From the NCBI GenBank assembly GCA_020633895.1, contig JACKCT010000005.1:1-64000 (forward strand): DNA of 64,000 nucleotides. Direction: 5' to 3'. The position numbers and the translations under genes were made by a program. The stretch comes from Deltaproteobacteria bacterium (GTDB lineage Bacteria > Lernaellota > Lernaellaia > JACKCT01). How positions within the stretch are numbered: the first letter of the stretch is position 1; every line of letters begins with the position of its first letter. The notes under the pieces are model-generated. The model worked only from the letters and a program-made list of their open reading frames with translations, was not told where the DNA came from and made no database searches. This document shows, one piece after another, positions 29,719-48,724 of this stretch.

Positions 29719-30498
29719 ATGACCAGACGCATCGCGTTCATCCTGGTCGCCTTGATCGCGCTGGGTCTTTTCGCCGGGAGCGCCGCCGCTCAGGTGATTT
29801 CGGGCGAGCAGTTCATCGTCGTGCGATACTACGCCGGCGACGTGCTGGTCAAAACCATCACCGTCACGCCCGACGGCCGCTCGTTGCAGACCGTGCCCAA
29901 CGCGGGCCTGGTGGGCAGCATCGACACGGCCAAGGCCTATCTGGTCGAGGGCAAGATCGAAACGCCCATCGGCTTGGGCGGAGGCTCGACCGGCACGGGC
30001 GGAACGGGCCTGGAGTCGCGCGACGCCTATCTGATCGGCCCGGAAGATCGGCTGGCGATCAACGTCTGGGAAAACGAGCAGCTCACCCGCGACGTCCCGG
30101 TGCGCCCCGACGGGATGATCTCCATGCCGTTGCTGGGCGATATCCACGCCGCCGGCATGACGACCACGGCGCTCAAGAACTACATGACCGAGCAGCTCAA
30201 GCGCTACATCGAAAACCCGGTCGTGACCGTCACCGTCGCGGAGATCAATAGCTACAAGGCTTACGTCCAAGGCAACGTCAACAGCCCGGGCGAGTACAAG
30301 ATTTCCGGCCAGACCACCGTCACCCAGGTCATCAGCCTCGCCGGCGGCTTCAACGAATTCGCCGACCAGGGCAACATCCGCATTCTGCGTCCGGCCAAGG
30401 CGGGCAAGCAGACGATCAAGGTCAACTACAAGCGGATTCTCAAAGGCAAGGACGACGATGAGCGCATCCTTCCCGGCGACACCGTCGTGGTTCCCTAA
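29719..30498 (+). CDS. Polysaccharide export protein, short Wza/EpsA-like (Poly_export + SLBB)
   Basis: The ATG at 29719 with a GGGAG SD gives signal peptide MTRRIAFILVALIALGLFAGSAAA. The …IGPEDRLAINVWENEQLTRDVPVRPDGMISMPLLGDIHAAGMTTTALKNYMT… block is the poly-export domain. The protein lacks the long C-terminal helix of full-length Wza. Confidence 0.8.
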   Translation: MTRRIAFILVALIALGLFAGSAAAQVISGEQFIVVRYYAGDVLVKTITVTPDGRSLQTVPNAGLVGSIDTAKAYLVEGKIETPIGLGGGSTGTGGTGLESRDAYLIGPEDRLAINVWENEQLTRDVPVRPDGMISMPLLGDIHAAGMTTTALKNYMTEQLKRYIENPVVTVTVAEINSYKAYVQGNVNSPGEYKISGQTTVTQVISLAGGFNEFADQGNIRILRPAKAGKQTIKVNYKRILKGKDDDERILPGDTVVVP

Positions 30499-30518
30499 GG
30501 CAAAGGTGGGAGTCCGTA

Positions 30519-31808
30519 TTGCGTTGGATGATTGACCGAGCGGGGCCGGGCACCTTGCGTGTCCTGATGTTGACGGCGGCGCTGCTGGTCGTCGCGCTCC
30601 GTCCGTCCGTCGCCCACGCCACCAAGCTGACTATCTATCCCTTGCTGGCAACCTGGTACGAATACAACGACAACCTGTTGGCCACCGCGGAAGAGTCGGA
30701 CGAGGAAAAGCTCGCCGATTCGTCGATCACCGTTCAGCCCGCCCTGCGCGTGAGGTACGAGTCCGTGCGCACCGAGGCCGAGATCGGCGGCCAGGCGGCG
30801 TTCCAGTGGTTTTTCAACGAGCAGTCGGAAAACGGCCTGCCCGATTTGGTGGAAGGCCACGCGCTCTACGGCGTCTGGCTCACGCCGTCGACCCGTATCG
30901 AGGCCTCCGACGATCTGGGCTTTTTCTTCGACAGCCGCGACACCATCGGAACGCAGTCCCAGGAACTGCTGCAAGTGCAGACGGCGTCCATCACGAACAC
31001 CATCGGCCTGGGCCTGACGCACATCTTCGATCTGCGCAATCAGGTCGCGGGAAAGTACGAGTTCGTGACCAACGAATACGAGGACGAAGATCTGGCCGAC
31101 GTGGTCACGCACCGGCCGACGATCGAGTACGAGCACCGCGTCAGCCCGGTGCATACGATCGTGGTGTTCGGCCGATTCACGCGGAACATCTTCGATCCCG
31201 AGTTCGATTTTCTGCGGCGCATCTGGGATTCGGACGCGCGCATGGACGAGGAGTTCCCCACGGAGCTTCGCACCGACAACGACTTCGACACCTACGTCCC
31301 GGGCGTCGGCTTGGACTACCGCATGACCGCGACGCTCTCCTTTTCGGTGCGGTCGGGCATGATCGTGCCGGCGCGGCTGGTGGACAACAGTTACCAGCTT
31401 GACGAGTTGGAGTGGTATCAGGTCGTCTCGGCGGAGAAAAACTGGCAGATGGTGCGTCTGGGTGTGGGCTACGAGCGCGACTTGGAGCCGGCCAGCGGCA
31501 TCAACACGGCGGTGCTCTCCCAGAACTACAACGCGGATCTCACGGAAGTCTGGACCCGCAAATTCGAGACGAGCCAGAACGCGTACTTCAACCGCGCCAC
31601 CCAACTGGACGGTGATTTCGACACCTACGCCGGGGCGGTCGCGGCCAACTACTACATCGCGCCGTGGATCGGCATCGGCGCGGGCTACCAGCACATCCGG
31701 CAGTATTCCGACCTGGGCGCCGACGACACCGAGACCATCACCAACCGCGCCTTGTTCACGCTCGAAATCTCCACTCCCCAGGCCGATTCCCTCAGCCTCG
31801 ATCTTTAA
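30519..31808 (+). CDS. Putative outer-membrane beta-barrel protein of the EPS export module
   Basis: Signal peptide (…LLVVALRPSVAHA). Alternating amphipathic beta-strand pattern with abundant Tyr/Asn/Asp/Gly. Positioned directly after the Wza-like and kinase genes, as EpsL-type barrels are in PEP-CTERM loci. Fold not verified. Confidence 0.5.
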   Translation: MRWMIDRAGPGTLRVLMLTAALLVVALRPSVAHATKLTIYPLLATWYEYNDNLLATAEESDEEKLADSSITVQPALRVRYESVRTEAEIGGQAAFQWFFNEQSENGLPDLVEGHALYGVWLTPSTRIEASDDLGFFFDSRDTIGTQSQELLQVQTASITNTIGLGLTHIFDLRNQVAGKYEFVTNEYEDEDLADVVTHRPTIEYEHRVSPVHTIVVFGRFTRNIFDPEFDFLRRIWDSDARMDEEFPTELRTDNDFDTYVPGVGLDYRMTATLSFSVRSGMIVPARLVDNSYQLDELEWYQVVSAEKNWQMVRLGVGYERDLEPASGINTAVLSQNYNADLTEVWTRKFETSQNAYFNRATQLDGDFDTYAGAVAANYYIAPWIGIGAGYQHIRQYSDLGADDTETITNRALFTLEISTPQADSLSLDL

Positions 31809-31868
31809 CGTTCCAACAAGCAAAACGGTGACAATCGAACAGAGCGGGTAGGTGCGTCTCGGCACTTA

Positions 31869-36159: not shown

Positions 36160-37026
36160 ATGTCCGATCGACTACGCGGTATCGTCTCCATCCTGATCGC
36201 CTGCCTGTTTTTCGCCTCCGGAACGGTCGGCGCGAAATTGCTTTCGGGCACTTTCTCCGGCTCCTACATGGCCCTGGCGCGCTTTGTCGTGGGGGCGGTG
36301 CTGGTCTTCGGGGCGGTGGGGATCACGCGGCGGCCGCTTCGGGTGACGAACTGGCGGGCGTGGATCGGGCGCGGGCTGTTCGGCGCGCTGGCGATGGTCT
36401 TTTATTACGTGGGCATCGCGGCGACCAGTTCGGGCCGGGCGACGCTGCTGCTGGGGATGGCGCCGGCGTTCGTGTTGGTGATCGGGGCGCTGTTTTTCAG
36501 CGAGCAGTTCCGCTGGGGCTATGTGTTCGGGCTGGCGCTGTGCATCGGCGGGGCTTCGCTGATTTTGAGCGATGGGTCGAGCTACCCCCTCTGGGGCGAT
36601 CTGACGCTCCTGGCCGCGGCGCTGATGCGCGGTTTCGCCCTCAACTACATCCGCGAGTTGCGCACCGACGCCCACGACCCGGTGACGATTTATTTCGCGG
36701 TGTGCGTGTTCGGCCTGCCGATGGTGCTGCACACCGCGCCCGAAACGGCGCACATCACCGCTTCGAACCTGCCGCTGCTGCTGGCCGTCTCGGCGATCAT
36801 GTTCTTCGCGCAGATTTTCTTCGCCTACGGCTTCAAGCACACCAGCGCCGTTGCCGCCGGGCTGCTCACTTACCTGGTCATCCCCTTGGCGGTCGGGCTG
36901 TCGATCGTCTTTGTCCACGAGCGGATCACGCCGCGATTCATCGCCGGGGCGTTGGCGATTTTCCTCGGTCTGGTCGGCGCGGCGTGGATGGTGAATCGGC
37001 CGGGCAAGGCGACACCTGCGGACTAG
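36160..37026 (+). CDS. EamA/DMT-superfamily transporter
   Basis: 10-TM protein with two EamA repeats; 288 aa. Confidence 0.8.
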   Translation: MSDRLRGIVSILIACLFFASGTVGAKLLSGTFSGSYMALARFVVGAVLVFGAVGITRRPLRVTNWRAWIGRGLFGALAMVFYYVGIAATSSGRATLLLGMAPAFVLVIGALFFSEQFRWGYVFGLALCIGGASLILSDGSSYPLWGDLTLLAAALMRGFALNYIRELRTDAHDPVTIYFAVCVFGLPMVLHTAPETAHITASNLPLLLAVSAIMFFAQIFFAYGFKHTSAVAAGLLTYLVIPLAVGLSIVFVHERITPRFIAGALAIFLGLVGAAWMVNRPGKATPAD

Positions 37027-37080
37027 CGGCGCCGCAACGCTACACTGACCGAACGGAGCCCCGACCCTGCGACCAATGTC

Positions 37081-37230
37081 GGGCGCCGCACTTTCGCGAC
37101 CCGAAGGTGGAGCGAAGGTGTGATTTTCCCACTCGCGACCTCACCCTTTCAGAGCCGCGCACGGCTCGCCAAGCCGCAGCCTTGGCGAAGGCTGGTTGTA
37201 AGCGGTTGGGTTCGAATTTGTGCGAATCGT
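37081..37230. repeat. Composite repeat: F1 half-copy plus CTTTCAGAGCCGCG plus GCCTTGGCGAAGG module, inverted relative to 18016-18228
   Basis: GGGCGCCGCACTTTCGCGACCCGAAGGTGGAGCGAAGGTGTGA…CCCTTTCAGAGCCGCGCACGGCTCGCCAAGCCGCAGCCTTGGCGAAGGCTGGTTGTAAGCGGTTGG. Lies between the convergent EamA and motB genes. Confidence 0.6.
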
Positions 37231-37243
37231 CTGGTCTCTCAGC

Positions 37244-38254
37244 TTACTCGGTCGCGGCCTCGACATCCCCTTCGGCCTCGGCGGTCGCCTCGGCGACGGA
37301 CTCGGAGGTGACGGTCACGCCCAGGCTCCCCATCTCGCCGGTCGGCACCGTCGTGTCGATAAGCAGACGCGGGTCCACGGGGCGCAGCGGGTCGGGATCG
37401 ATGTCGCCGGGACGGCGCTCCTGCAGCAGGCTTTGGCGCGTCGGCTTCATGCGGATTTCCACGCGACGATTTTCCTGGCGACCGTCGGCGGTGTCGTTCG
37501 AGGCGACCGGGCGCGTGTCGCCCATGGCCGCCGCGCTGTAGCGCGTTTCGTCGCCGGACGCGAGCGCGAGCATGCGTTTGACGACCGACGAGGAACGGGC
37601 CGCGGACAGGGACCAGTTGTCGGCCATGGAACCGCCTTCGGGCGGGCGATTGTCGGTATGCCCCTCGACCGAAACGCTCAGGTCATAGACGGACGCCGCT
37701 TCGGCGATTTTCGCCAGAAGAGGATTGGCGTCGGGGCTGACCTCCGTGTCGCCGGGCCCGAAGGTCAGCGACTCGGGCAGACGCACCCGAATGCCTTCCC
37801 GATCCGCCGAGAAGACGATCTTTTCGTCAATCCCGAAGCGGTTGGTCAGGTCCACCAGGCTCACCCAGGTCTCATCCTCGCCCACACGCTCGCGACGCAC
37901 TTCCTGGACCAGTTGGCCCAGGGGCGTGTTGCCGGTGTTGCGAACGTCGGTAAGGTCCGACGTGGTGGTGTCCGGCTCGGCGGAGAGATTACGGGCGACC
38001 TGGAAGAGCAACTGGATGCTGGGAATGAACGTCGGATTGGCCGGCACCGGCTCCTCGGGCTGGATGGCAGCGTAGACCAGCTCCGAGGCGGCCTGGGAAA
38101 TAGTCCGGGCTTTCTGGTCGTCCAGGGACGACATGGTCAGCAACAAGACGAAGAAGGTGAGCATCAGCGTGATCAGATCGCTGAAGGTCAGCATCCATCC
38201 CAACGGATCCGGGCCGTCGGCGGGGACGATTTTGACGTTCTTGTTCTTGCTCAT
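37244..38254 (-). CDS. motB: MotB-like stator subunit (OmpA-like peptidoglycan-binding C-domain), channel Asp present
   Basis: The N-terminal TM …WMLTFSDLITLMLTFFVLL… carries the conserved Asp. The C-terminal …HTDNRPP…NWSLSAARSSSVVKRML…NRRVEIRM is an OmpA/MotB domain. Confidence 0.8.
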   Translation of the reverse strand: MSKNKNVKIVPADGPDPLGWMLTFSDLITLMLTFFVLLLTMSSLDDQKARTISQAASELVYAAIQPEEPVPANPTFIPSIQLLFQVARNLSAEPDTTTSDLTDVRNTGNTPLGQLVQEVRRERVGEDETWVSLVDLTNRFGIDEKIVFSADREGIRVRLPESLTFGPGDTEVSPDANPLLAKIAEAASVYDLSVSVEGHTDNRPPEGGSMADNWSLSAARSSSVVKRMLALASGDETRYSAAAMGDTRPVASNDTADGRQENRRVEIRMKPTRQSLLQERRPGDIDPDPLRPVDPRLLIDTTVPTGEMGSLGVTVTSESVAEATAEAEGDVEAATE

Positions 38255-39087
38255 CGACCTTCGTCCGGGACCGCTTCGGGCGCCTTGCTGGGCCCTCGGA
38301 AGGGGTTGCGCAAGCCGAAGGCGGTCCAGAAATCCCGACGTTGGGTAGCGGCCTTGGCGGCCATCGCCTGACGTCGGCCCTCGCGGATGTTGTTGAGGGT
38401 GACGACGACGCGCCGGTTGCTGGTGGTCAGCAGGTTCGGGCTGTTGATGTCCACTTGTTCGTCGTTGGTGCCCTTGGCGGTGACGCGCAGTTTCTCCGCC
38501 TTGACCCCGGCCGCCATCAGCGCCCGCGCCGCCGCGATGGAGCGATTCATGGACAGATCCCAGGGCGAGGCCGAGCCCGGCTCGTCCGCCTCGGCATAGC
38601 CGGTCAGCTCGATGCTCAGGCCGTATTCCCGCGCCGGGGCCGTGACGACTTCCAGCAGATCCAAGGCCGATTCGGACAGGGTGTCGCTGCCCGGCGCGAA
38701 CATCAGCGCCTCGGGAAAGGTGATGTTGATGTCATAGTCGTTGGGCACGGCGAGCATACGCACGCGCATCGCCTTGGCTTCCATCGCCGAGTGGATCTTG
38801 CGGTAGACCGGGTCGTGAATGACCGACAGGGTCTTGATCCATTCGTTGACGTTTTCCAAGGCGTCGTCGCTGGTGAACTTGAGCAGGCTGTATTGGAAGG
38901 GCATGCCGCCCTCGACGATGCCGAAGGTGCCGACCAGGGAGTTGAGGGCCTTGTGCTTGCGCGCCTCGTCGATCACCGCGATGGAGTTGAGCAGAATGAA
39001 AAAGCACAGCAGCAACAGGAACAGCGAAGTCACCAGAACGATGTTGGGGTCGCTCTCCCGTTCCTCGTAGATCTTTTTCTTGCCCAT
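38251..39087 (-). CDS. MotB-like stator paralogue lacking the conserved channel aspartate
   Basis: TM …IVLVTSLFLLLLCFFILLNSIAV… has no Asp. OmpA-like C-domain (…NRSIAAARALMAAGV…NRRVVVTL). The ATGA at 38251-38254 overlaps the downstream motB. Confidence 0.7.
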   Translation of the reverse strand: MGKKKIYEERESDPNIVLVTSLFLLLLCFFILLNSIAVIDEARKHKALNSLVGTFGIVEGGMPFQYSLLKFTSDDALENVNEWIKTLSVIHDPVYRKIHSAMEAKAMRVRMLAVPNDYDINITFPEALMFAPGSDTLSESALDLLEVVTAPAREYGLSIELTGYAEADEPGSASPWDLSMNRSIAAARALMAAGVKAEKLRVTAKGTNDEQVDINSPNLLTTSNRRVVVTLNNIREGRRQAMAAKAATQRRDFWTAFGLRNPFRGPSKAPEAVPDEGR

Positions 39088-39099
39088 GGCGCGCTCCGG

Positions 39100-39867
39100 C
39101 TATTTGTCGAACTGGGACTTGCGCATATTCGGCGGCAACAGGCTGTTGAGGCGCGACTCGATGACGCGGGGGTTGTCGCCTTTGGAGATGGATTCGACGC
39201 CCACCATGATGATGGTGTTGTAGAGGACCTCGGAGGAGCTGCGCGTGCGCAGCTTGCCGGCCAGGGGGTTGAAGACCACGTTGGCCAGCATGGCGCCGTA
39301 AAACGTCGTCAACAGGGCGACGGCCATGGCGGGACCGATGGCCGACGGGTCGGCCATGTTCTGGAGCATCTGCACCAGGCCGATGAGCGTTCCGATCATG
39401 CCCATGGCCGGGGAGATGGTGCCGGCGGTTTGGAGGATATCGGCGCCTTTCTTGTGCCGGTCGGCCAGCGCCTCGATCTCCGATTCCATCTGGGAGACGA
39501 TCGCCTCGGTTTCCGAACCGTCCACGGCCATCATCAGGCCCTTCTTGAGGAAGGGGTCCTTCACGTCCTTGCCGGCTTCCTCCAGGGCGAGGATGCCTTC
39601 GGTGCGCACGAGCTGGCCGAACTTGACCAGGCGATCGACGTATTCGTCGGGAGCGAGATCCCGATTGAAAAAGCCTTTGCTGACCACCTTCGCCAGGCCG
39701 GCCACGTCCTTGAGCGGATAGGAGACCAGCACCACCATCAGCGTACCCAGGACGGTGATCAGCACCGACGGCACGTCAATGAAAATCGCCAGCGAGCCGC
39801 CCAGCAGCATCGCGGTGGCCACCAGGCCGAAGGTTCCGACCATACCGATTAGAGTGGCGATATCCAT
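39100..39867 (-). CDS. motA: MotA/TolQ/ExbB-family proton-channel stator subunit
   Basis: 255 aa, 4 TM helices, with conserved …GTISPAMGMIGTLIGLVQML… and …ALLTTFYGAMLANVVFNPLAGKL…. Confidence 0.85.
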   Translation of the reverse strand: MDIATLIGMVGTFGLVATAMLLGGSLAIFIDVPSVLITVLGTLMVVLVSYPLKDVAGLAKVVSKGFFNRDLAPDEYVDRLVKFGQLVRTEGILALEEAGKDVKDPFLKKGLMMAVDGSETEAIVSQMESEIEALADRHKKGADILQTAGTISPAMGMIGTLIGLVQMLQNMADPSAIGPAMAVALLTTFYGAMLANVVFNPLAGKLRTRSSSEVLYNTIIMVGVESISKGDNPRVIESRLNSLLPPNMRKSQFDK

Positions 39868-40078
39868 TTGTTCGATCCCTCGTGCGTGTTGCCGTTGTTG
39901 GGCGCCGTTTTTCTATTCCCGGCGCGTCGATCTTTCATCGTCGAACGGGGCAAAGTCCTAAAGAATGGAAAAGAGGGCCGATGGGCGAAATGTGGAATTC
40001 GTGCGGCTTGATCCGGACCGGCCCGTCGCCTATTGTGGGCGGCCCGTTGAGACGCAAGCCCCGTGAAGGATCGTCCGT

Positions 40079-42496
40079 TTGTCCGAACAAGTCCAAGATC
40101 CCATCCTGCGCGACCTGAATCCCGAGCAAAAACAAGCGGTTTTGCACGACGCGGGGCCGTTGTTGATCTTCGCCGGGGCCGGGTCGGGCAAGACGCGGGT
40201 GCTCACGCGGCGCATCGCCTATCTGGTGGCCCGGCGGGGGGTGGATCCCTATCGCATCCTGGCCGTGACATTCACCAACAAGGCCGCGGCCGAAATGCGC
40301 GAACGCATCAGCGGCATGCTCCCCGGCGTGGGCGAGAAGGTGTGGGTTTCGACCTTCCACTCGTCCTGCGCGCGCATCCTGCGGATGGACGGCGACAAGA
40401 TCGGCTTCGACCGCTCCTTCACCATCTACGACGAGGCCGACCAGCGGGCGCTGGTCAAGGAACTGCTGCGTCGGGCGCAGATCGACCCGACGGTGCTGGA
40501 CCCGCGTCGCGTGCTGTCGGTTTTTGACGAGGCGAAGAACAATCTGACGAATCCGGCGGACCTGGCCTCGGACCACTTCACCGGCCCGGCGCGGGATCGG
40601 TTTTTGCGCATCGCGGAGATGTATACCAAGGAGCTCAAGGCCAACAACGCGATGGACTTCGGCGATTTGATCGTCAACACGGTGGAGCTTCTTCGCACCG
40701 ATTCGGAAGTGCGGGAGGCCTATCGGCGGCGCTTCGAATATATTCTTGTGGACGAGTTCCAGGACACGAACGCGGCCCAGTACACCCTGCTGGATTTGCT
40801 GCTGGGCTCCCACCGCAATCTGTGCGTCGTGGGCGATGACGACCAGAGCATTTACCGCTGGCGCGGCGCGAATATCGAGAACATCCTGGGCTTCGCCGAC
40901 CAGTTTCCCGAGGCGACCAAGATCATCCTGGGGCGCAACTACCGTTCCTCCTCCAACATCCTGGCCGTCGCCGACGCCTTGATCCGACGCAACACCGGCC
41001 GAGAGATCAAGAACCTCCAGACTTCCAACGACCCGGGCCGCCCCGTGCGTCTGTTTCGCGCCGACGACGAATACGACGAAGCGCGCTACGTGGCCGACCA
41101 GATCCGGGATCTGGTCGAACGCCTGGGCATCCCGCCGGGCGACATCGCCGTGTTTTATCGCATCAACGCCCTGTCCCGCGTGTTCGAAGAAGAGTTGATG
41201 CGACGAGGCACGCCGTTTGTCGTCGTGGGCGGCACGCGGTTCTACTCCCGCAAGGAGATCAAGGACGTGCTGGCCTATTGGCGCGTCATCGCCAACCCGG
41301 CCGACAGCGTCAGCGCCAAGCGCATCATCAACACGCCCTCGCGCAAAATCGGCAAGACGACGGTGGAGCGAATCGACGACTTCGCCGCCGAGCAGGGTTT
41401 GCCGTTTCTTGTCGCCGCGCGACGGATGGTCAAGACCGAAGAACTGCCCGCCGCCGCGACGAAGGCCGTGGCCGGGTTCATCGAAATTGTCGACGAGTTG
41501 ACCGCCGATTCGCTGCGTTCGTCCTTGCCCGACCTGCTGGAAAAAACCCTGCAACGCACCGGCTACCGCAAGATGCTCAACGAGGACAAGTCGGTGGAGG
41601 CGCTGTCGCGCAAGGAGAACCTGGGCGAGTTGGCCGAGGCCGTGGCCCAGTACACCAAGCGCTCGCCCGACGCGGTGCTGGCCGATTATTTAGAAGCGGT
41701 GACGCTCACCGAGCAGGCCGACGAGGCGGCGGACGTGGACAATTCGGTGCGCCTGATGACGTTGCACAACGCGAAGGGGCTGGAGTTTCCGGCCGTGTTC
41801 ATGGTGGGCATGGAGGAGGCGGTGCTGCCCCATTCCCGTTCGATTTCCTCGGGCCTGACCGCCGAGATCGAGGAGGAGCGGCGCCTGGCCTACGTGGGCA
41901 TCACCCGCGCGAAACGTTATTTGACGCTCACCTGCGCGGCGCGGCGTCGGTCCTATTCCGGCCTGCCGACGTACGCCCGGCCCAGTCGTTTCCTCGACGA
42001 AATCCCCGAGGACATGCTCGACATCCAGGGCTTCGCGGCCAATCCCTTCGGCTCGCCCCTGGGCGCCGAGGAGCCGGGGGGAACGGTTTACGAATTCGAC
42101 CAACCCCGGGGGCGCAACTTCGGATCCGGCTCGCGTTCCTTCGACCGGCCGCGCCCGTCGACGCCTCGTCCTTCCTACGCCTCGAACGAACAGGCCACGC
42201 GTGTCGCGCGGCGTCGTCCCGGCGATTCTTCAAGGCCCACCGGATTTGTCCCCGCCGGGGAAAAGGTCCTCGACTACGGCGCTCCCGCGAAAAAAACCGC
42301 GACACCCTCCGCGAGCGGAGCAGGCAAGGGCGGCGGCGCGCTGCGCGTCGGGCAGAAGGTCCTGCACGCCAAATTCGGCAACGGCGAGGTGCTCTCCGTC
42401 GTCGGCCAGGGCCCCAAGGCCAAGGTCATGGTCCGCTTCGGCTCGGTCGGCGTGAAGACGATGTTCCTGCAATACGCGAATCTGGAAACGGTGTAG
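40079..42496 (+). CDS. uvrD: ATP-dependent DNA helicase PcrA/UvrD
   Basis: Motifs I (AGAGSGKT), Ia, II (DEFQDTN), III-VI, and a C-terminal Tudor-like tail (…GQKVLHAKFGNGEVL…); 805 aa. Confidence 0.92.
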   Translation: MSEQVQDPILRDLNPEQKQAVLHDAGPLLIFAGAGSGKTRVLTRRIAYLVARRGVDPYRILAVTFTNKAAAEMRERISGMLPGVGEKVWVSTFHSSCARILRMDGDKIGFDRSFTIYDEADQRALVKELLRRAQIDPTVLDPRRVLSVFDEAKNNLTNPADLASDHFTGPARDRFLRIAEMYTKELKANNAMDFGDLIVNTVELLRTDSEVREAYRRRFEYILVDEFQDTNAAQYTLLDLLLGSHRNLCVVGDDDQSIYRWRGANIENILGFADQFPEATKIILGRNYRSSSNILAVADALIRRNTGREIKNLQTSNDPGRPVRLFRADDEYDEARYVADQIRDLVERLGIPPGDIAVFYRINALSRVFEEELMRRGTPFVVVGGTRFYSRKEIKDVLAYWRVIANPADSVSAKRIINTPSRKIGKTTVERIDDFAAEQGLPFLVAARRMVKTEELPAAATKAVAGFIEIVDELTADSLRSSLPDLLEKTLQRTGYRKMLNEDKSVEALSRKENLGELAEAVAQYTKRSPDAVLADYLEAVTLTEQADEAADVDNSVRLMTLHNAKGLEFPAVFMVGMEEAVLPHSRSISSGLTAEIEEERRLAYVGITRAKRYLTLTCAARRRSYSGLPTYARPSRFLDEIPEDMLDIQGFAANPFGSPLGAEEPGGTVYEFDQPRGRNFGSGSRSFDRPRPSTPRPSYASNEQATRVARRRPGDSSRPTGFVPAGEKVLDYGAPAKKTATPSASGAGKGGGALRVGQKVLHAKFGNGEVLSVVGQGPKAKVMVRFGSVGVKTMFLQYANLETV

Positions 42497-42689: not shown

Positions 42690-43382
42690 CTACTTGGTTT
42701 TGCGGACGCCTTTGAGTTTGGTGCGGCCGTCTTCGATGGTGACTTTGAAGGCCACGTCGGCGCCCAGGTGCTGGCGCAGGGCGGGCAGTTGTTTGCCGAT
42801 GGATTTCTGGAAGGCGTCGTAGGAAGGGATGGATTCCTTCGTCTCCTTGCGGGCGGCGACGTATTGGTCGTAGAGCTGGCGGGCGTTGCGCACGCCCTCG
42901 GTGTTGATTTCCTTGACCTGAGCCGGCGCGGCGTTGCCGTGTTTTTCGCCCAAGGCCGCGATGCGGTCCTTGCGTTCGGTCTCGGCGTCCTCGACGCGCT
43001 TTTTGGCGTCCTGATAATCCTGCTCGGTAATCACGCGCCCTGTTTTCTTGTCGAACTTGCCGACGTGGTAATCGGCCTTGAATTTGTGCGGCGCGTAGGT
43101 GCCGGCCTCGATCTCCTGCATGATGCGATCCCAGAGGCGGCGGTAGGTGTTCAGCGTCGCCAGCGCGGTCTGCAGGCGAAAGCGGGTGGCCGAGTTGCCG
43201 ATATGTTCCCGGGACACCTGGCGGACGAATTTTTCCAAATCCGTTCGCGCCCTAAGCGGCGGAATGCGGTTCACCCCGGCGAAATACTGGTCATAGTCAT
43301 GACGCAGCACTCGCGTGCGCTCTTGGATTTCATCGATGGCTTTGTCGACGTTCATGGCTAACGTGCTGTTTCGGCCCAACAA
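42690..43382 (-). CDS. Hypothetical cytoplasmic protein (highly charged, helical)
   Basis: Lys/Glu/Arg-rich with coiled-coil-like segments. No recognisable family. Start ambiguous (M1 at 43382 or M10 at 43355). Confidence 0.45.
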   Translation of the reverse strand: MLGRNSTLAMNVDKAIDEIQERTRVLRHDYDQYFAGVNRIPPLRARTDLEKFVRQVSREHIGNSATRFRLQTALATLNTYRRLWDRIMQEIEAGTYAPHKFKADYHVGKFDKKTGRVITEQDYQDAKKRVEDAETERKDRIAALGEKHGNAAPAQVKEINTEGVRNARQLYDQYVAARKETKESIPSYDAFQKSIGKQLPALRQHLGADVAFKVTIEDGRTKLKGVRKTK

Positions 43383-46301: not shown

Positions 46302-46485
46302 GGGGCCTCCAAGGCGAGAGCGCAGGTGAACTTGCGTCGTTGTTATCAGGGGTTATGGGGACTGTCCAGACTGTCGGGGCACGGCGGTGATGTTGCCCGG
46401 CGACCTTCGAAAAATCCCGCATTTCTTCTTGGCCGATCGGGATGGTTTCGGTATTATCCGGCTCCGAATTTTCCGGCCGAACCTT

Positions 46486-46555
46486 GCGCTTTAAGCACTG
46501 CGCCTTGAACACTGAGCTTTGAACACCGCGCTTTGAACACAGCGCCTTGGGAGTA
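46486..46555 (+). promoter_or_regulatory. Iteron-like array: 14-nt direct repeat GCGC(T/C)TTGAACAC(N) ×4.5, ending in the RBS of the downstream secreted-protein gene
   Basis: GCGCTTTAAGCACT / GCGCCTTGAACACT / GAGCTTTGAACACC / GCGCTTTGAACACA / GCGCCTTGGGAGTA at exact 14-nt period. The last unit contains the GGGAG SD 8 nt before the ATG at 46562. Confidence 0.55.
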
Positions 46556-46561
46556 CAACGA

Positions 46562-48724
46562 ATGCATTGGACATGGAAGCTGGCGGTGATTTTGACCGCC
46601 CTGATGATGACGTTTCCGCTGGTCGCGGCCGATTGCGGCGGCGACGACGACGATGACGACGATTCGAGCGACGACGACACGGCCGACGACGACGACACCG
46701 GCGATGACGACACAGTCGATGACGACACAGTCGATGACGACACAGTCGATGACGACGATACCGTCGACGATGACACGGCCGACGATGACACGGCCGACGA
46801 CGACACCGGGGACGACGACGTCGAGGTTCCCATCGTGCAGTCCGAAGCGTTTTTGAACCGCTGCGCGACGTTCATCGACAATTGCGCGACCAACACCGGC
46901 GGCCGGTACGAGCAAATCTGCGCCCTGGAAAAAGACCAGTCCATCAACGAGGACGTTATCCGCAATTACATCTCGAGCACGGTCGAGCCTCGGGAGGACA
47001 CCGCGGACTTCGGCATGACCGGGTTCATGCGCATGATGTATCTCTACGAAGACAAACTGGCCGAGCCCCTGCGCACCGAGATCGAGGACGCGTTCCTGGG
47101 CTTCAAATACTGGCCCGATGAAGCGGGGCCGGACGAGATGGTCTTCTGGTCGGAAAACCACCATATTCTCTTTCACAGCCTGGAATATCTCGCCGGCCAG
47201 AAATGGCGCAACGAGACGTTCACCAACGAGCCCATGACCGGCCAGGACCACATCGACAAGGTGCTGCCCCGGCTGCATCGTTGGCTGGACTGGCGTTTGC
47301 TGCACGGATTTTCCGAGTGGCATTCGAATGTCTACTACAACGAAGACGCGCCGCCGCTGCTGAACCTGGTGGATTTCGCCGAGGACGCGGACATCCGGGA
47401 GAAGGCGAAGCTGGTGCTGGACATGCTGCTGTTGGACATGGCCTTCAACTCCAAGGACGCCACCATCGCCACCGCCCACGGCCGCACCTATCCGGACAAG
47501 ATCACCAACCGGTCTTCCGACTCCATGAGCGGCGCCCAGTCCCTGTGGTTCGGCAACACGGACAAGTGGATGACCGACAACGGCGGCTTCACCGAAACGC
47601 ACCTGTGCACCAGCGCCTACGCGGCTCCCGAGGCGATCGTGCGCGTGGCCAACGCGACGCCGGACGAGTTCCTGAACTTCCAGCGGGACGGCATCAACAT
47701 CGCCGACGCGGATGACTACGGCTTGACTTACACCGATCCGGACGACGTGCTGTTCTGGTGGTCGATGGGATCCTACGCGGCGCCGGATATCATCGAAGGG
47801 ACTTTCGATACCTTGGACGAATGGACCATGTGGGACGGCGCGTTCTTCGGCGATCTCAATTTCCTCGAACCCATCGCTCAGTCGCCGATTATCAAGACGC
47901 TCATCACGCTGCTGCGGCCTATTTCCCAAGGCCCCGCGCTGGAAGAACTCAACATCGTCACCTATCGCACACCCGAGTATCAGCTCTCCTCCGCCCAGGA
48001 TTACAACCCGGGCTATTGGGGCGCCCAGACGGCGATGTGGTCGGGGCTGATCGACCCGCAGACGAGCGTGTACACGTCCATCCCCGGCGGCGCGGGCGAT
48101 TATCTGTCGACCGACTGGACCGGCGGATTCCTGCCTCGCATCGGTCAGGTGGAGAATGTGGCGATCCTCGTCTACGGCGAGGAGGGCTTCTTCCTGGACA
48201 ACCTGCTGCGGCCGGTCTTCAACAAGGGTTACGCCCACGCGTTCTTCCCGCGCGGCAACTTCGACGAGTGGAGCCAGTCCGACGGCTGGACCTTCGGACG
48301 CAAAGGCGACGCCTATGTGGCGCTCTACGCCTCGGCCCCGACGCGCTGGGCGGACGGAGAGACGTCGGACTACGAACTGATCGCCGACACGATCAATCTG
48401 GTATGGATCGTGGAGATGGGCAGCGCGGCGCAAAACGGCACCTACGAGGCCTTCAAGGCGGATATTCTGTCGGCGGACGTGACGGTCGACGGGCTGGATG
48501 TGACGTACGATTCGCCCTCGGTCGGTGAGCTTTCCTACGGCTGGACCGGGCGCCTCAAGCGCGACGGCAAACGCGTGGACCAGGGGTCGTTCAAGCGCTT
48601 CGACAATATGTACATTCAGCATGAGTGGGGCGACACGCTCTACACGCTCAACATCGACGAACTGCGTCTGGAGCTGGATGTGGAGAACCTGACACGCACG
48701 ATGTACGAGGGTAGCGGTTCGTAA
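46562..48724 (+). CDS. Secreted protein: poly-Asp linker plus large alpha-helical domain (possible polysaccharide lyase/heparinase-II/III-like fold)
   Basis: The ATG at 46562 with a GGGAG SD gives MHWTWKLAVILTALMMTFPLVAADC. About 80 aa of DDD(T/A/V/G) repeats follow, then a roughly 600-aa domain (…VFWSENHHILFHSLEY…WHSNVYYNE…). A rho-independent terminator follows. The function call is weak. Confidence 0.6.
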   Translation: MHWTWKLAVILTALMMTFPLVAADCGGDDDDDDDSSDDDTADDDDTGDDDTVDDDTVDDDTVDDDDTVDDDTADDDTADDDTGDDDVEVPIVQSEAFLNRCATFIDNCATNTGGRYEQICALEKDQSINEDVIRNYISSTVEPREDTADFGMTGFMRMMYLYEDKLAEPLRTEIEDAFLGFKYWPDEAGPDEMVFWSENHHILFHSLEYLAGQKWRNETFTNEPMTGQDHIDKVLPRLHRWLDWRLLHGFSEWHSNVYYNEDAPPLLNLVDFAEDADIREKAKLVLDMLLLDMAFNSKDATIATAHGRTYPDKITNRSSDSMSGAQSLWFGNTDKWMTDNGGFTETHLCTSAYAAPEAIVRVANATPDEFLNFQRDGINIADADDYGLTYTDPDDVLFWWSMGSYAAPDIIEGTFDTLDEWTMWDGAFFGDLNFLEPIAQSPIIKTLITLLRPISQGPALEELNIVTYRTPEYQLSSAQDYNPGYWGAQTAMWSGLIDPQTSVYTSIPGGAGDYLSTDWTGGFLPRIGQVENVAILVYGEEGFFLDNLLRPVFNKGYAHAFFPRGNFDEWSQSDGWTFGRKGDAYVALYASAPTRWADGETSDYELIADTINLVWIVEMGSAAQNGTYEAFKADILSADVTVDGLDVTYDSPSVGELSYGWTGRLKRDGKRVDQGSFKRFDNMYIQHEWGDTLYTLNIDELRLELDVENLTRTMYEGSGS

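Follow-up and report, generated by a model that had tools for sequence, protein, structure and literature searches.

A flagellar stator cassette with an additional, specialised MotB paralogue that lacks the transmembrane aspartate

A 64,000-nucleotide stretch from the genome assembly of a Deltaproteobacteria bacterium (GCA_020633895.1, contig JACKCT010000005.1, positions 1 to 64,000; hereafter the window) contains three tightly packed minus-strand genes: motA, a motB paralogue whose product lacks the ion-binding aspartate (motB', product B'), and a canonical motB (product B). B' is a functional, diverged MotB paralogue, and what distinguishes this flagellar stator cassette is an extra, specialised B subunit. 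Its relatives constitute a large, conserved, and apparently so far undescribed stator cassette family, in which the aspartate and the canonical plug motif that are united in single-copy MotBs are split between two co-encoded proteins. Based on these sequence comparisons, we see an even chance that B' and B fill the two axle positions of one MotA pentamer, giving an asymmetric MotA5:B':B stator with one ion site.

Organization of the cassette

The three genes of the cassette are as follows.

39100..39867, minus strand: motA, PomA-like A subunit of the flagellar stator; 255 amino acids (aa), Pfam MotA_ExbB match of 106 bits
38251..39087, minus strand: motB' (B'), the Asp-less MotB paralogue; 278 aa from an ATG start, the longest possible open reading frame (ORF)
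37244..38254, minus strand: motB (B), the canonical Asp-containing (Asp+) B subunit; 336 aa, Pfam matches to MotB_plug (53.8 bits) and OmpA (54.1 bits)

The motA stop codon and the motB' ATG are 12 nt apart with a GGAG preceding the ATG, and the motB' stop and motB start overlap by 4 nt (ATGA); the motB' reading frame is intact and translationally coupled. B' has a Pfam OmpA match of 42.1 bits (cut-off 27.2) at residues 129-216 and a MotB_plug match of 23.6 bits (E 4e-5) that lies just below the cut-off of 24. NCBIfam has no model specific to B', the top matches being MotD/MotB and far below threshold. There is no match to ExbD/TolR (PF02472) at E < 0.01, an OmpA domain being present instead, and no MotY family, MotY_N, FliL or other accessory domain is found in B' with Pfam or NCBIfam.

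A profile of the B' family matches full-length MotB proteins of solved structure (8ucs and 6ysf at E 1e-53, and also 6ysl), with residues 1-243 aligned and the Asp of those proteins opposite Ser/Ala of the profile. The AlphaFold2 (AF2) monomer model of B' has a predicted local distance difference test (pLDDT) score of 81, and contains a transmembrane (TM) helix at residues 14-37, a plug helix at 41-54, a disordered segment at 56-71, two linker helices, an OmpA-like domain at 112-232, and a C-terminal helix. Its top Foldseek matches are the periplasmic domains of a MotB-like protein, MotS, MotB, and PomB. The B protein of the window has a long low-complexity C-terminal extension past its OmpA-like domain that is rich in Pro, Asp, Glu, Ala and Thr (37244-37450, residues ~270-336); such an extension is absent from most partner MotBs, whose median length is about 247 aa.

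The B' transmembrane helix lacks an acidic residue

The features that define the ion site of the cassette are listed below.

38974..39048, minus strand: TM helix of B', residues 14-38, with no acidic residue (AF2 helix 14-37)
39025..39027, minus strand: Ser21 codon (TCG) of motB', in the column of the ion-binding Asp (E. coli MotB D32, PomB D24), from the sequence and alignments
38177..38179, minus strand: Asp26 codon (GAT) of motB, the sole ion-binding carboxylate of the cassette, from the sequence

The preliminary description of this DNA claimed that the TM segment of the upstream paralogue has no acidic residue and that the downstream MotB has the invariant Asp, and both statements hold: the quoted string IVLVTSLFLLLLCFFILLNSIAV is exact, with neither Asp nor Glu at residues 14-38, and the string TFSDLITLML is exact in the product of 37244..38254. 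It also raised the concern that re-annotation of the start might reveal an upstream in-frame TM segment containing an Asp. This is ruled out, as the motA TAG is in frame only 4 codons before the motB' ATG, making an N-terminal extension impossible. Alignments to E. coli MotB and to C. sporogenes MotB of solved structure both put Ser21 of B' in the Asp column, where the downstream MotB has Asp26. A shifted Asp was considered and rejected: Asp13-Pro14 precedes the helix as a juxtamembrane motif, and is not a displaced ion site because the partner MotB carries the equivalent Asp16-Pro17. The TM segment contains no His, and hence no SHLS motif of the TonB/TolA type.

Among 161 proteins retrieved from the relatives of B' the Asp column contains Ser in 71, Ala in 50, and Thr in 8, besides occasional Gln, Asn, Cys or Leu; Asp is present in 26 (28 when two reference sequences are counted in) and absent in at least 134. 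Because the loss is common to so many relatives, and the rest of the TM segment is strongly conserved, it is not explained by chance or decay. In some B'-type proteins the Asp position is occupied by Glu (ALFLELMMQMLAFF), Gln or Asn (L119, L125, L126; P0138, P0148, P0120; L139), and the site has thus diversified in several ways, including a retained carboxylate that is one carbon longer (Glu).

A widespread family of Asp-less B' proteins

An exhaustive phmmer search with B' yields 628 cluster representatives at E up to 1e-3, and a scan for the B' TM pattern using one genome per species yields 203 relatives. The best 80 of these 203 belong to the Desulfobacterales, Desulfarculales (Desulfocarbo indianensis), Desulfatibacillum alkenivorans, and Desulfomonilia, as well as Myxococcota (Bradymonadales, Polyangia), Bacteriovoracaceae, Nitrospirota, Nitrospinota, Tectomicrobia, and Sumerlaeota. 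The Asp-less relatives as a whole span Desulfobacterota, Myxococcota, Bdellovibrionota, Nitrospirota, Nitrospinota and others. The window B' is a divergent member, with 33-37% identity to its nearest relatives. Database names of the relatives are just 'OmpA family protein' or 'chemotaxis protein MotB', and we found no description of an Asp-less MotB paralogue in open-access papers and bioRxiv, including a 2025 survey of MotAB evolution, although one may exist elsewhere.

Gene order and pairing

The usual setting of the family cassettes is an operon of the order flgE-motA-motB'-motB-fliL-fliM. Three metagenomic contigs have the extended order fliK-flgD-flgE-motA-motB'-motB-fliL-fliM-fliN-fliOPQR-flhB, and the same order recurs in loci from genomes. 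Among loci found by the B' TM pattern alone and having at least 800 nt downstream of motB', an Asp+ motB with the motif D[LM]xxL[LM][LI]TFF follows directly in 77 of 77. As these loci were found through B' only, the pairing is not an artefact of selection. A motA gene lies directly upstream of motB' in all but two of the B'-side loci, and those two are affected by ORF overlap or a contig end.

A second sample was taken from the MotA side, using the 80 closest MotA relatives in metagenomes of the Joint Genome Institute, of which 55 loci have at least 1.7 kb downstream; MotB copies were classed by a rule anchored on the FF pair and checked by eye. An Asp-less copy followed by an Asp+ copy is present at 26 of the 55 loci (three of them, L119, L125 and L126, with Glu at the Asp site), a single Asp+ MotB at 16, two Asp+ copies with near-identical TM segments in an Aquifex-like arrangement at four, the reversed order of Asp+ then Asp-less at three, and no recognised MotB at six. 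The Asp-less copy is never found alone or doubled among these 55 loci. The proposal that orthologous cassettes might always pair an Asp-plus with an Asp-minus copy is therefore correct in one direction: every Asp-less copy has an Asp+ partner, yet there are also cassettes with two Asp+ copies (Desulfovibrionales) or with a single MotB.

Two minor arrangements are seen among these loci. The reversed cassettes (L139, L149 and L166; motA, Asp+ MotB, Asp-less MotB) have Asp replaced by Asn, Ala and Ser respectively, and could reflect independent losses or a swap in gene order. L104, L110 and L151 encode two Asp+ MotBs with almost identical TM segments (e.g. WLVTFSDIMTLLLTFFVLLLSMASM versus ...SMSSM), which suggests gene conversion or a recent partial duplication.

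Complementary constraint on B' and B

Conservation was computed for B' and the partner B across 78 cassettes. The ion-site half of the B' TM helix (residues 16-24) is relaxed, with pairwise identities of 0.14-0.54, Leu22 excepted. Residues 25-34 (I/L-L-L-x-F-F-I-x-L-N) are 91-100% conserved, save for positions 28 (81%) and 32 (55%). The partner B has Trp20, Met21, Thr23, Phe24, Asp26 and Leu27 conserved at 94-100%, with Asp26 at 100% in all 78, and its periplasmic half is conserved too. B' keeps the MotB motif [IL]LL[AT]FF[IV]LL at adjacent positions, which takes in every face of the helix. This pattern fits a helix surrounded by protein, like that of MotB within MotA5, rather than a lipid-facing anchor; a role as a plain membrane anchor is thus unlikely.

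The B' helix has also gained a polar residue, and is followed by a conserved plug region.

38986..38988, minus strand: Asn34 codon (AAC) of motB', a B'-specific polar residue in the periplasmic half of the TM helix, where MotB has Leu, from the sequence
38908..38970, minus strand: plug region of B', residues 40-60 (D-EARKHKALNSLVGTFGIVEGG; AF2 helix 41-54)

Asn34 is present in 94% of the 78 cassette B' proteins and throughout one Asp-less subclade (115 of 115); at this position the Asp+ orthologues of B' mostly have Val. In our own alignment Asn34 corresponds to PomB L37, the neighbour of L36, which contacts the plug of the partner chain (PMC10374538). In the plug region Asp40 is conserved at 92%, Ala47 at 86%, Ser50 at 100%, Leu51 at 88%, Phe55 at 97%, and Gly56 at 94%. 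Ala47, Leu51, Phe55 and Gly56 align, again in our own alignment, with PomB I50, M54, F58 and G59, the residues that insert into a cleft of PomA (Hu et al., PMC10374538); stator plugs act in trans and in inequivalent environments (PMC10374538).

The mean pairwise identity of the plug is 0.53 in B' versus 0.36 in B. We scored the plug motif SLxGxFG as S[LIFMV]x[GD]x[FLAM]G. Of the 78 B' proteins 67 carry it, as do 14 of the 16 single-copy MotBs in the MotA-side sample; none of the 78 partner B proteins has it, and neither does the window motB product. Single-copy MotBs therefore hold both the Asp and the plug motif, whereas in the two-gene cassettes the Asp is solely in B and the motif solely in B'. 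This partition is a complementary subfunctionalisation, as is expected if both products serve one complex.

The Desulfovibrionales (Desulfohalovibrio reitneri, Alkalidesulfovibrio, Maridesulfovibrio, Pseudodesulfovibrio, and others) have a related arrangement. The first gene product (B1) occupies the same operon slot as B', scores with the B' lineage on the region following the TM segment, has the plug motif ALGS..GTFG and sometimes the Asn (LNS motif), and keeps the Asp in 113 of 113 parseable sequences. In the one second gene product (B2) that was read (L086), the plug motif is already gone. From their sequences these two-Asp cassettes look like an evolutionary intermediate. Duplication probably came first; the second copy would then have lost its canonical plug, after which the first copy exchanged Val for Asn and Asp for Ser, Ala or Thr.

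The peptidoglycan-binding domain and C-terminal tail of B'

Two further features are recognized towards the C-terminus of B'.

38392..38754, minus strand: OmpA-like peptidoglycan-binding domain of B', residues 112-232 (Pfam OmpA; AF2 mostly above pLDDT 90)
38299..38334, minus strand: aromatic C-terminal tail of B' (DFWTAFGLRNPF), residues 252-263, recurring in the nearest relatives

The OmpA-like domain had been described as complete. Its fold is confidently predicted and the key Arg is kept, but the peptidoglycan-binding motifs are degenerate in the window copy, with GYAE for GHTD, LSMNRS for LSxxRA, and NRRVVV for NRRVEI; the Arg is retained and the Asp displaced. Across the family the Asp of GHTD is present in 65 of 78 B' proteins, the Arg of LSxxR in 59 of 78, and the Arg of NRR in 78 of 78. 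One large Asp-less subclade (VMTVSLFLILLTFF; P0002, P0003, P0008 and similar) has Met in place of the LSxxRA Arg (LSGLMA, LSTLMA), and this replacement may weaken peptidoglycan binding by B' in part of the family.

The tails of the nearest relatives of the window B' are DFWKRFGARNPF and RWWKRIGIVNPF, and those of the main family are of a Phe-terminated FTYKKFDFKVF type. The partner MotB has no such tail. The B' tail could contact another periplasmic or outer-membrane structure.

The MotA partner and the coupling ion

The best NCBIfam match of the window MotA is PomA, at 284.5 bits and below the cut-off of 341. Arg88, Pro153, Thr160, Thr187, Thr188 and Pro201 are invariant in 17 cassette MotAs, whether the first MotB is Asp-less or Asp+; Glu96 is present in the window copy and is Gln in some of the 17. 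Of these positions the two charged ones are rotor contacts, and the Pro and Thr residues belong to the pore. Thr160, Thr187 and Thr188 equate to PomA T158, T185 and T186, a signature of sodium-driven units (Hu et al., PMC10374538), and from this match of the three Thr residues the predicted coupling ion is possibly Na+.

Genes and sequences surrounding the cassette

The neighbours of the cassette in the window are housekeeping genes, which encode phosphoenolpyruvate carboxykinase (PEPCK), a pyrophosphatase, Hsp20, an EamA transporter, and UvrD. The UvrD side is shared with L007, and L006 and L008 are flanked by unrelated genes. A promoter scan of 36900-40200 gives no sigma-70-like site, and terminator-like matches there are no commoner than in shuffled sequences; the motA-uvrD intergenic region (39868-40078) has by eye a weak resemblance to a sigma-28-type element (TTAGGACTTT...ACGATGAA). 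A 230-aa ORF (42690-43382, minus strand) with no Pfam match adjoins the UvrD/PcrA helicase gene, and is conserved beside the same neighbour in L007 (1135-1734; 174 bits). Two long ORFs (46454-48622, minus strand, 722 aa; 30495-31865, minus strand, 456 aa) match no Pfam family at E up to 1e-5 and are either candidate genes or shadow ORFs, the sequence being 63% GC.

Discussion

The arrangement that we favour is a mixed stator, in which the MotA pentamer would enclose two different central axles, one B' and one Asp+ MotB. B would supply the only ion-binding carboxylate. The canonical plug helix, which known stators place in trans on the side of the partner, would come from B', as would a second peptidoglycan anchor. 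Such a mixed unit would have one ion pathway instead of two. This is the most economical interpretation given the invariable co-encoding, the translational coupling, the retention of the MotA-contacting parts together with loss of the ion-site half, and the split of Asp and plug between the two proteins. We infer a physical B'/B heterodimer, operation through a single pathway, and energetics such as one ion per 72 degrees. The preliminary description offered either a heteromeric stator containing a non-conducting pseudo-subunit or a purely structural anchor. The co-encoding, the kept TM half and plug face, and the Asp/plug split lean towards the former, and the conservation on every face of the TM helix makes a plain anchor unlikely; the term pseudo-subunit undersells what seems to be the plug-bearing subunit.

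Several considerations weigh against a mixed stator. The cassettes of the window and of L006-L008 form a subgroup in which the three genes are an operon outside any flagellar operon, and phmmer searches with FlgD/E, FliL/M/P and all other ORFs of six flagellar loci find no other flagellar gene in the 64-kb window, such that a flagellar role in this organism rests on the rotor-contact and pore residues of MotA and on the family context. Substitutions of E. coli MotB D32 are dominant-negative, and a half-site stator would therefore need further features. The partner B keeps a less conserved amphipathic segment after its TM helix, so B2 homodimers might still be plugged. Association at the operon level is equally compatible with an accessory role. 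Moreover, separate stators can be formed with paralogous MotBs, as each of the two Aquifex MotBs works alone with MotA as a chimera (Takekawa et al. 2015, PMC4525482). Together with the unsettled stoichiometry of AglQ/AglS in the Myxococcus gliding motor, this makes the homodimer alternative a real one.

In that alternative a conducting MotA5B2 stator would coexist with a non-conducting MotA5B'2 that docks at the rotor or cell wall, generates no torque and is passive, locked or idling, whether as a brake, spacer, bearing or assembly scaffold. B' retains all that is needed for a seat in the MotA pentamer and for peptidoglycan binding, MotB1 and MotB2 of Aquifex set the precedent (PMC4525482), and cassettes with two Asp+ copies and near-identical TM segments exist (L104, L110, L151). 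We nonetheless regard separate stators as unlikely, as they leave unexplained the loss of SLxGxFG in 78 of 78 partner B proteins when single-copy MotBs keep the motif, and several phyla conserve the arrangement even though a coupled, constitutive and inert competitor for MotA and for places at the rotor should carry a cost. The mostly intact OmpA-like domain, the aromatic tail with its potential to contact another structure, and the proximity of motB' to fliL in most operons could instead point to a B' outside the MotA pore, acting as a membrane-tethered, peptidoglycan-bound accessory (MotY/T-ring-, FliL- or PflB-like) that recruits or stabilises MotA5B2 around the rotor. This too is an unlikely account, and rather doubtful: a plain anchor needs neither MotB's own motif with 91-100% conservation of most TM residues 25-34 nor exact conservation of the plug residues that insert into PomA, and B' has no MotY_N, FliL or other accessory domain and no His for an SHLS motif.

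B' might also translocate ions through other residues, such as the Thr20/Ser21 hydroxyls, Asn34, or Glu in some lineages, with both pathways active and the chemistry or ion specificity altered. The three-Thr signature of sodium-type units in MotA, the frequency of Ser or Thr at or beside the site, the Glu (L119, L125, L126) and Gln/Asn variants among relatives, and the nearly invariant Asn34 all speak for this. However, about a third of the members have Ala at the site, B' does not conserve the Trp, Thr and Phe around the ion site that never vary in B, and 5:2 motors are described as having the carboxylate universally and as depending on it (PMC10374538), so we consider this improbable. That B' is a decaying duplicate without function is effectively refuted by the conservation across the family. 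The window copy, with its degenerate peptidoglycan-binding motifs and only about 33-37% identity to its nearest relatives, might by itself suggest decay, but its ORF is intact and translationally coupled, and hundreds of representatives in several phyla share invariant Leu26, Leu27, Phe29, Phe30, Ile31, Leu33 and Ser50 and have gained a conserved Asn.

Extending the mixed stator to the family, it is conceivable, with the chances somewhat short of even, that many Desulfobacterota, Myxococcota, Bdellovibrionota, Nitrospirota and Nitrospinota run their flagella on an obligate MotA5:B':B half-site motor, with one carboxylate and one canonical plug, the latter from the other subunit. In rotary models the two Asp residues of the B dimer alternate, driving 36-degree steps of the A pentamer. 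If the extension is true, one ion would be used per 72-degree advance and not one per 36 degrees, and the motor would have evolved by stepwise complementary loss after duplication of motB, with the Desulfovibrionales as the surviving two-Asp intermediate.

The TM aspartate of MotB, PomB, ExbD and TolR is treated as universal and essential, and B' contradicts this universality within stator B subunits. The cassettes offer a natural experiment on three matters: the need for both ion pathways, the number of ions consumed per step, and the way in which a trans-acting plug gates the channel. They also provide a clear case of subfunctionalisation within a molecular machine whose intermediate state survives. 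For hundreds of genes that currently bear the names 'OmpA family protein' or 'chemotaxis protein MotB', the annotation would need revision. Should B' be inert or accessory instead, a new conserved flagellar component would still have been recognised in several environmentally important phyla.

Comparison with known systems

The closest relatives of the B' cassette are the MotA5B2 and PomA5B2 stators (C. sporogenes 6ysf/8ucs, B. subtilis 6ysl, C. jejuni 6ykm, V. alginolyticus 8bri). Like MotB and PomB, B' is encoded directly after motA, and has a short basic N-terminus, a single TM helix with LLxFF, an Asp-capped linker, an amphipathic plug helix, linker helices, and an OmpA-like domain. It differs in having no TM Asp, a residue described as universally conserved in 5:2 motors (PMC10374538), as well as in its unconstrained cytoplasmic TM half, its periplasmic-end Asn and its aromatic tail, and in that it is never the sole B subunit. 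The Aquifex aeolicus motA/motB1/motB2 operon likewise has one motA followed by two co-encoded motBs, whose products differ mainly in the periplasmic region. Both of those products have the Asp-containing TM segment, whereas the cassette described here is split, the first copy having no Asp and the second no canonical plug motif. The Desulfovibrionales motA-motB1-motB2-fliL cassettes (e.g. Desulfohalovibrio reitneri, P0154/L086) are orthologous to that of the window with B1 in the B' slot, but B1 keeps the Asp; they are annotated merely as OmpA/MotB family proteins.

The Myxococcus AglR-AglQ-AglS gliding motor also combines one TolQ/MotA-like A subunit with two different TolR/MotB-like B subunits. 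AglQ and AglS both keep the TM Asp, and the motor further differs from the B' cassette in being of TolQR type and non-flagellar, with neither plug nor OmpA-like domain. Whether AglQ and AglS form heterodimers or homodimers is an open question (PMC9389320). TonB and TolA, the partners of ExbB5D2 and TolQ5R2, resemble B' as Asp-less single-pass inner-membrane proteins that work with a 5:2 motor and reach outer layers. They bind the outside of the pentamer through the SHLS/His motif (PMC12204202), whereas B' has no His and carries the pore-type TM motif of MotB together with a plug. Unlike TolR and ExbD, B' has no match to the ExbD/TolR fold and does have a plug and an OmpA-like domain. MotY of the T-ring and other OmpA-like accessories share with B' an OmpA-like domain tied to PomAB-type stators. 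MotY, however, is secreted into the periplasm, its N-terminal domain is a distinct one, and it has neither a MotB-type TM helix nor a plug, both of which B' possesses.

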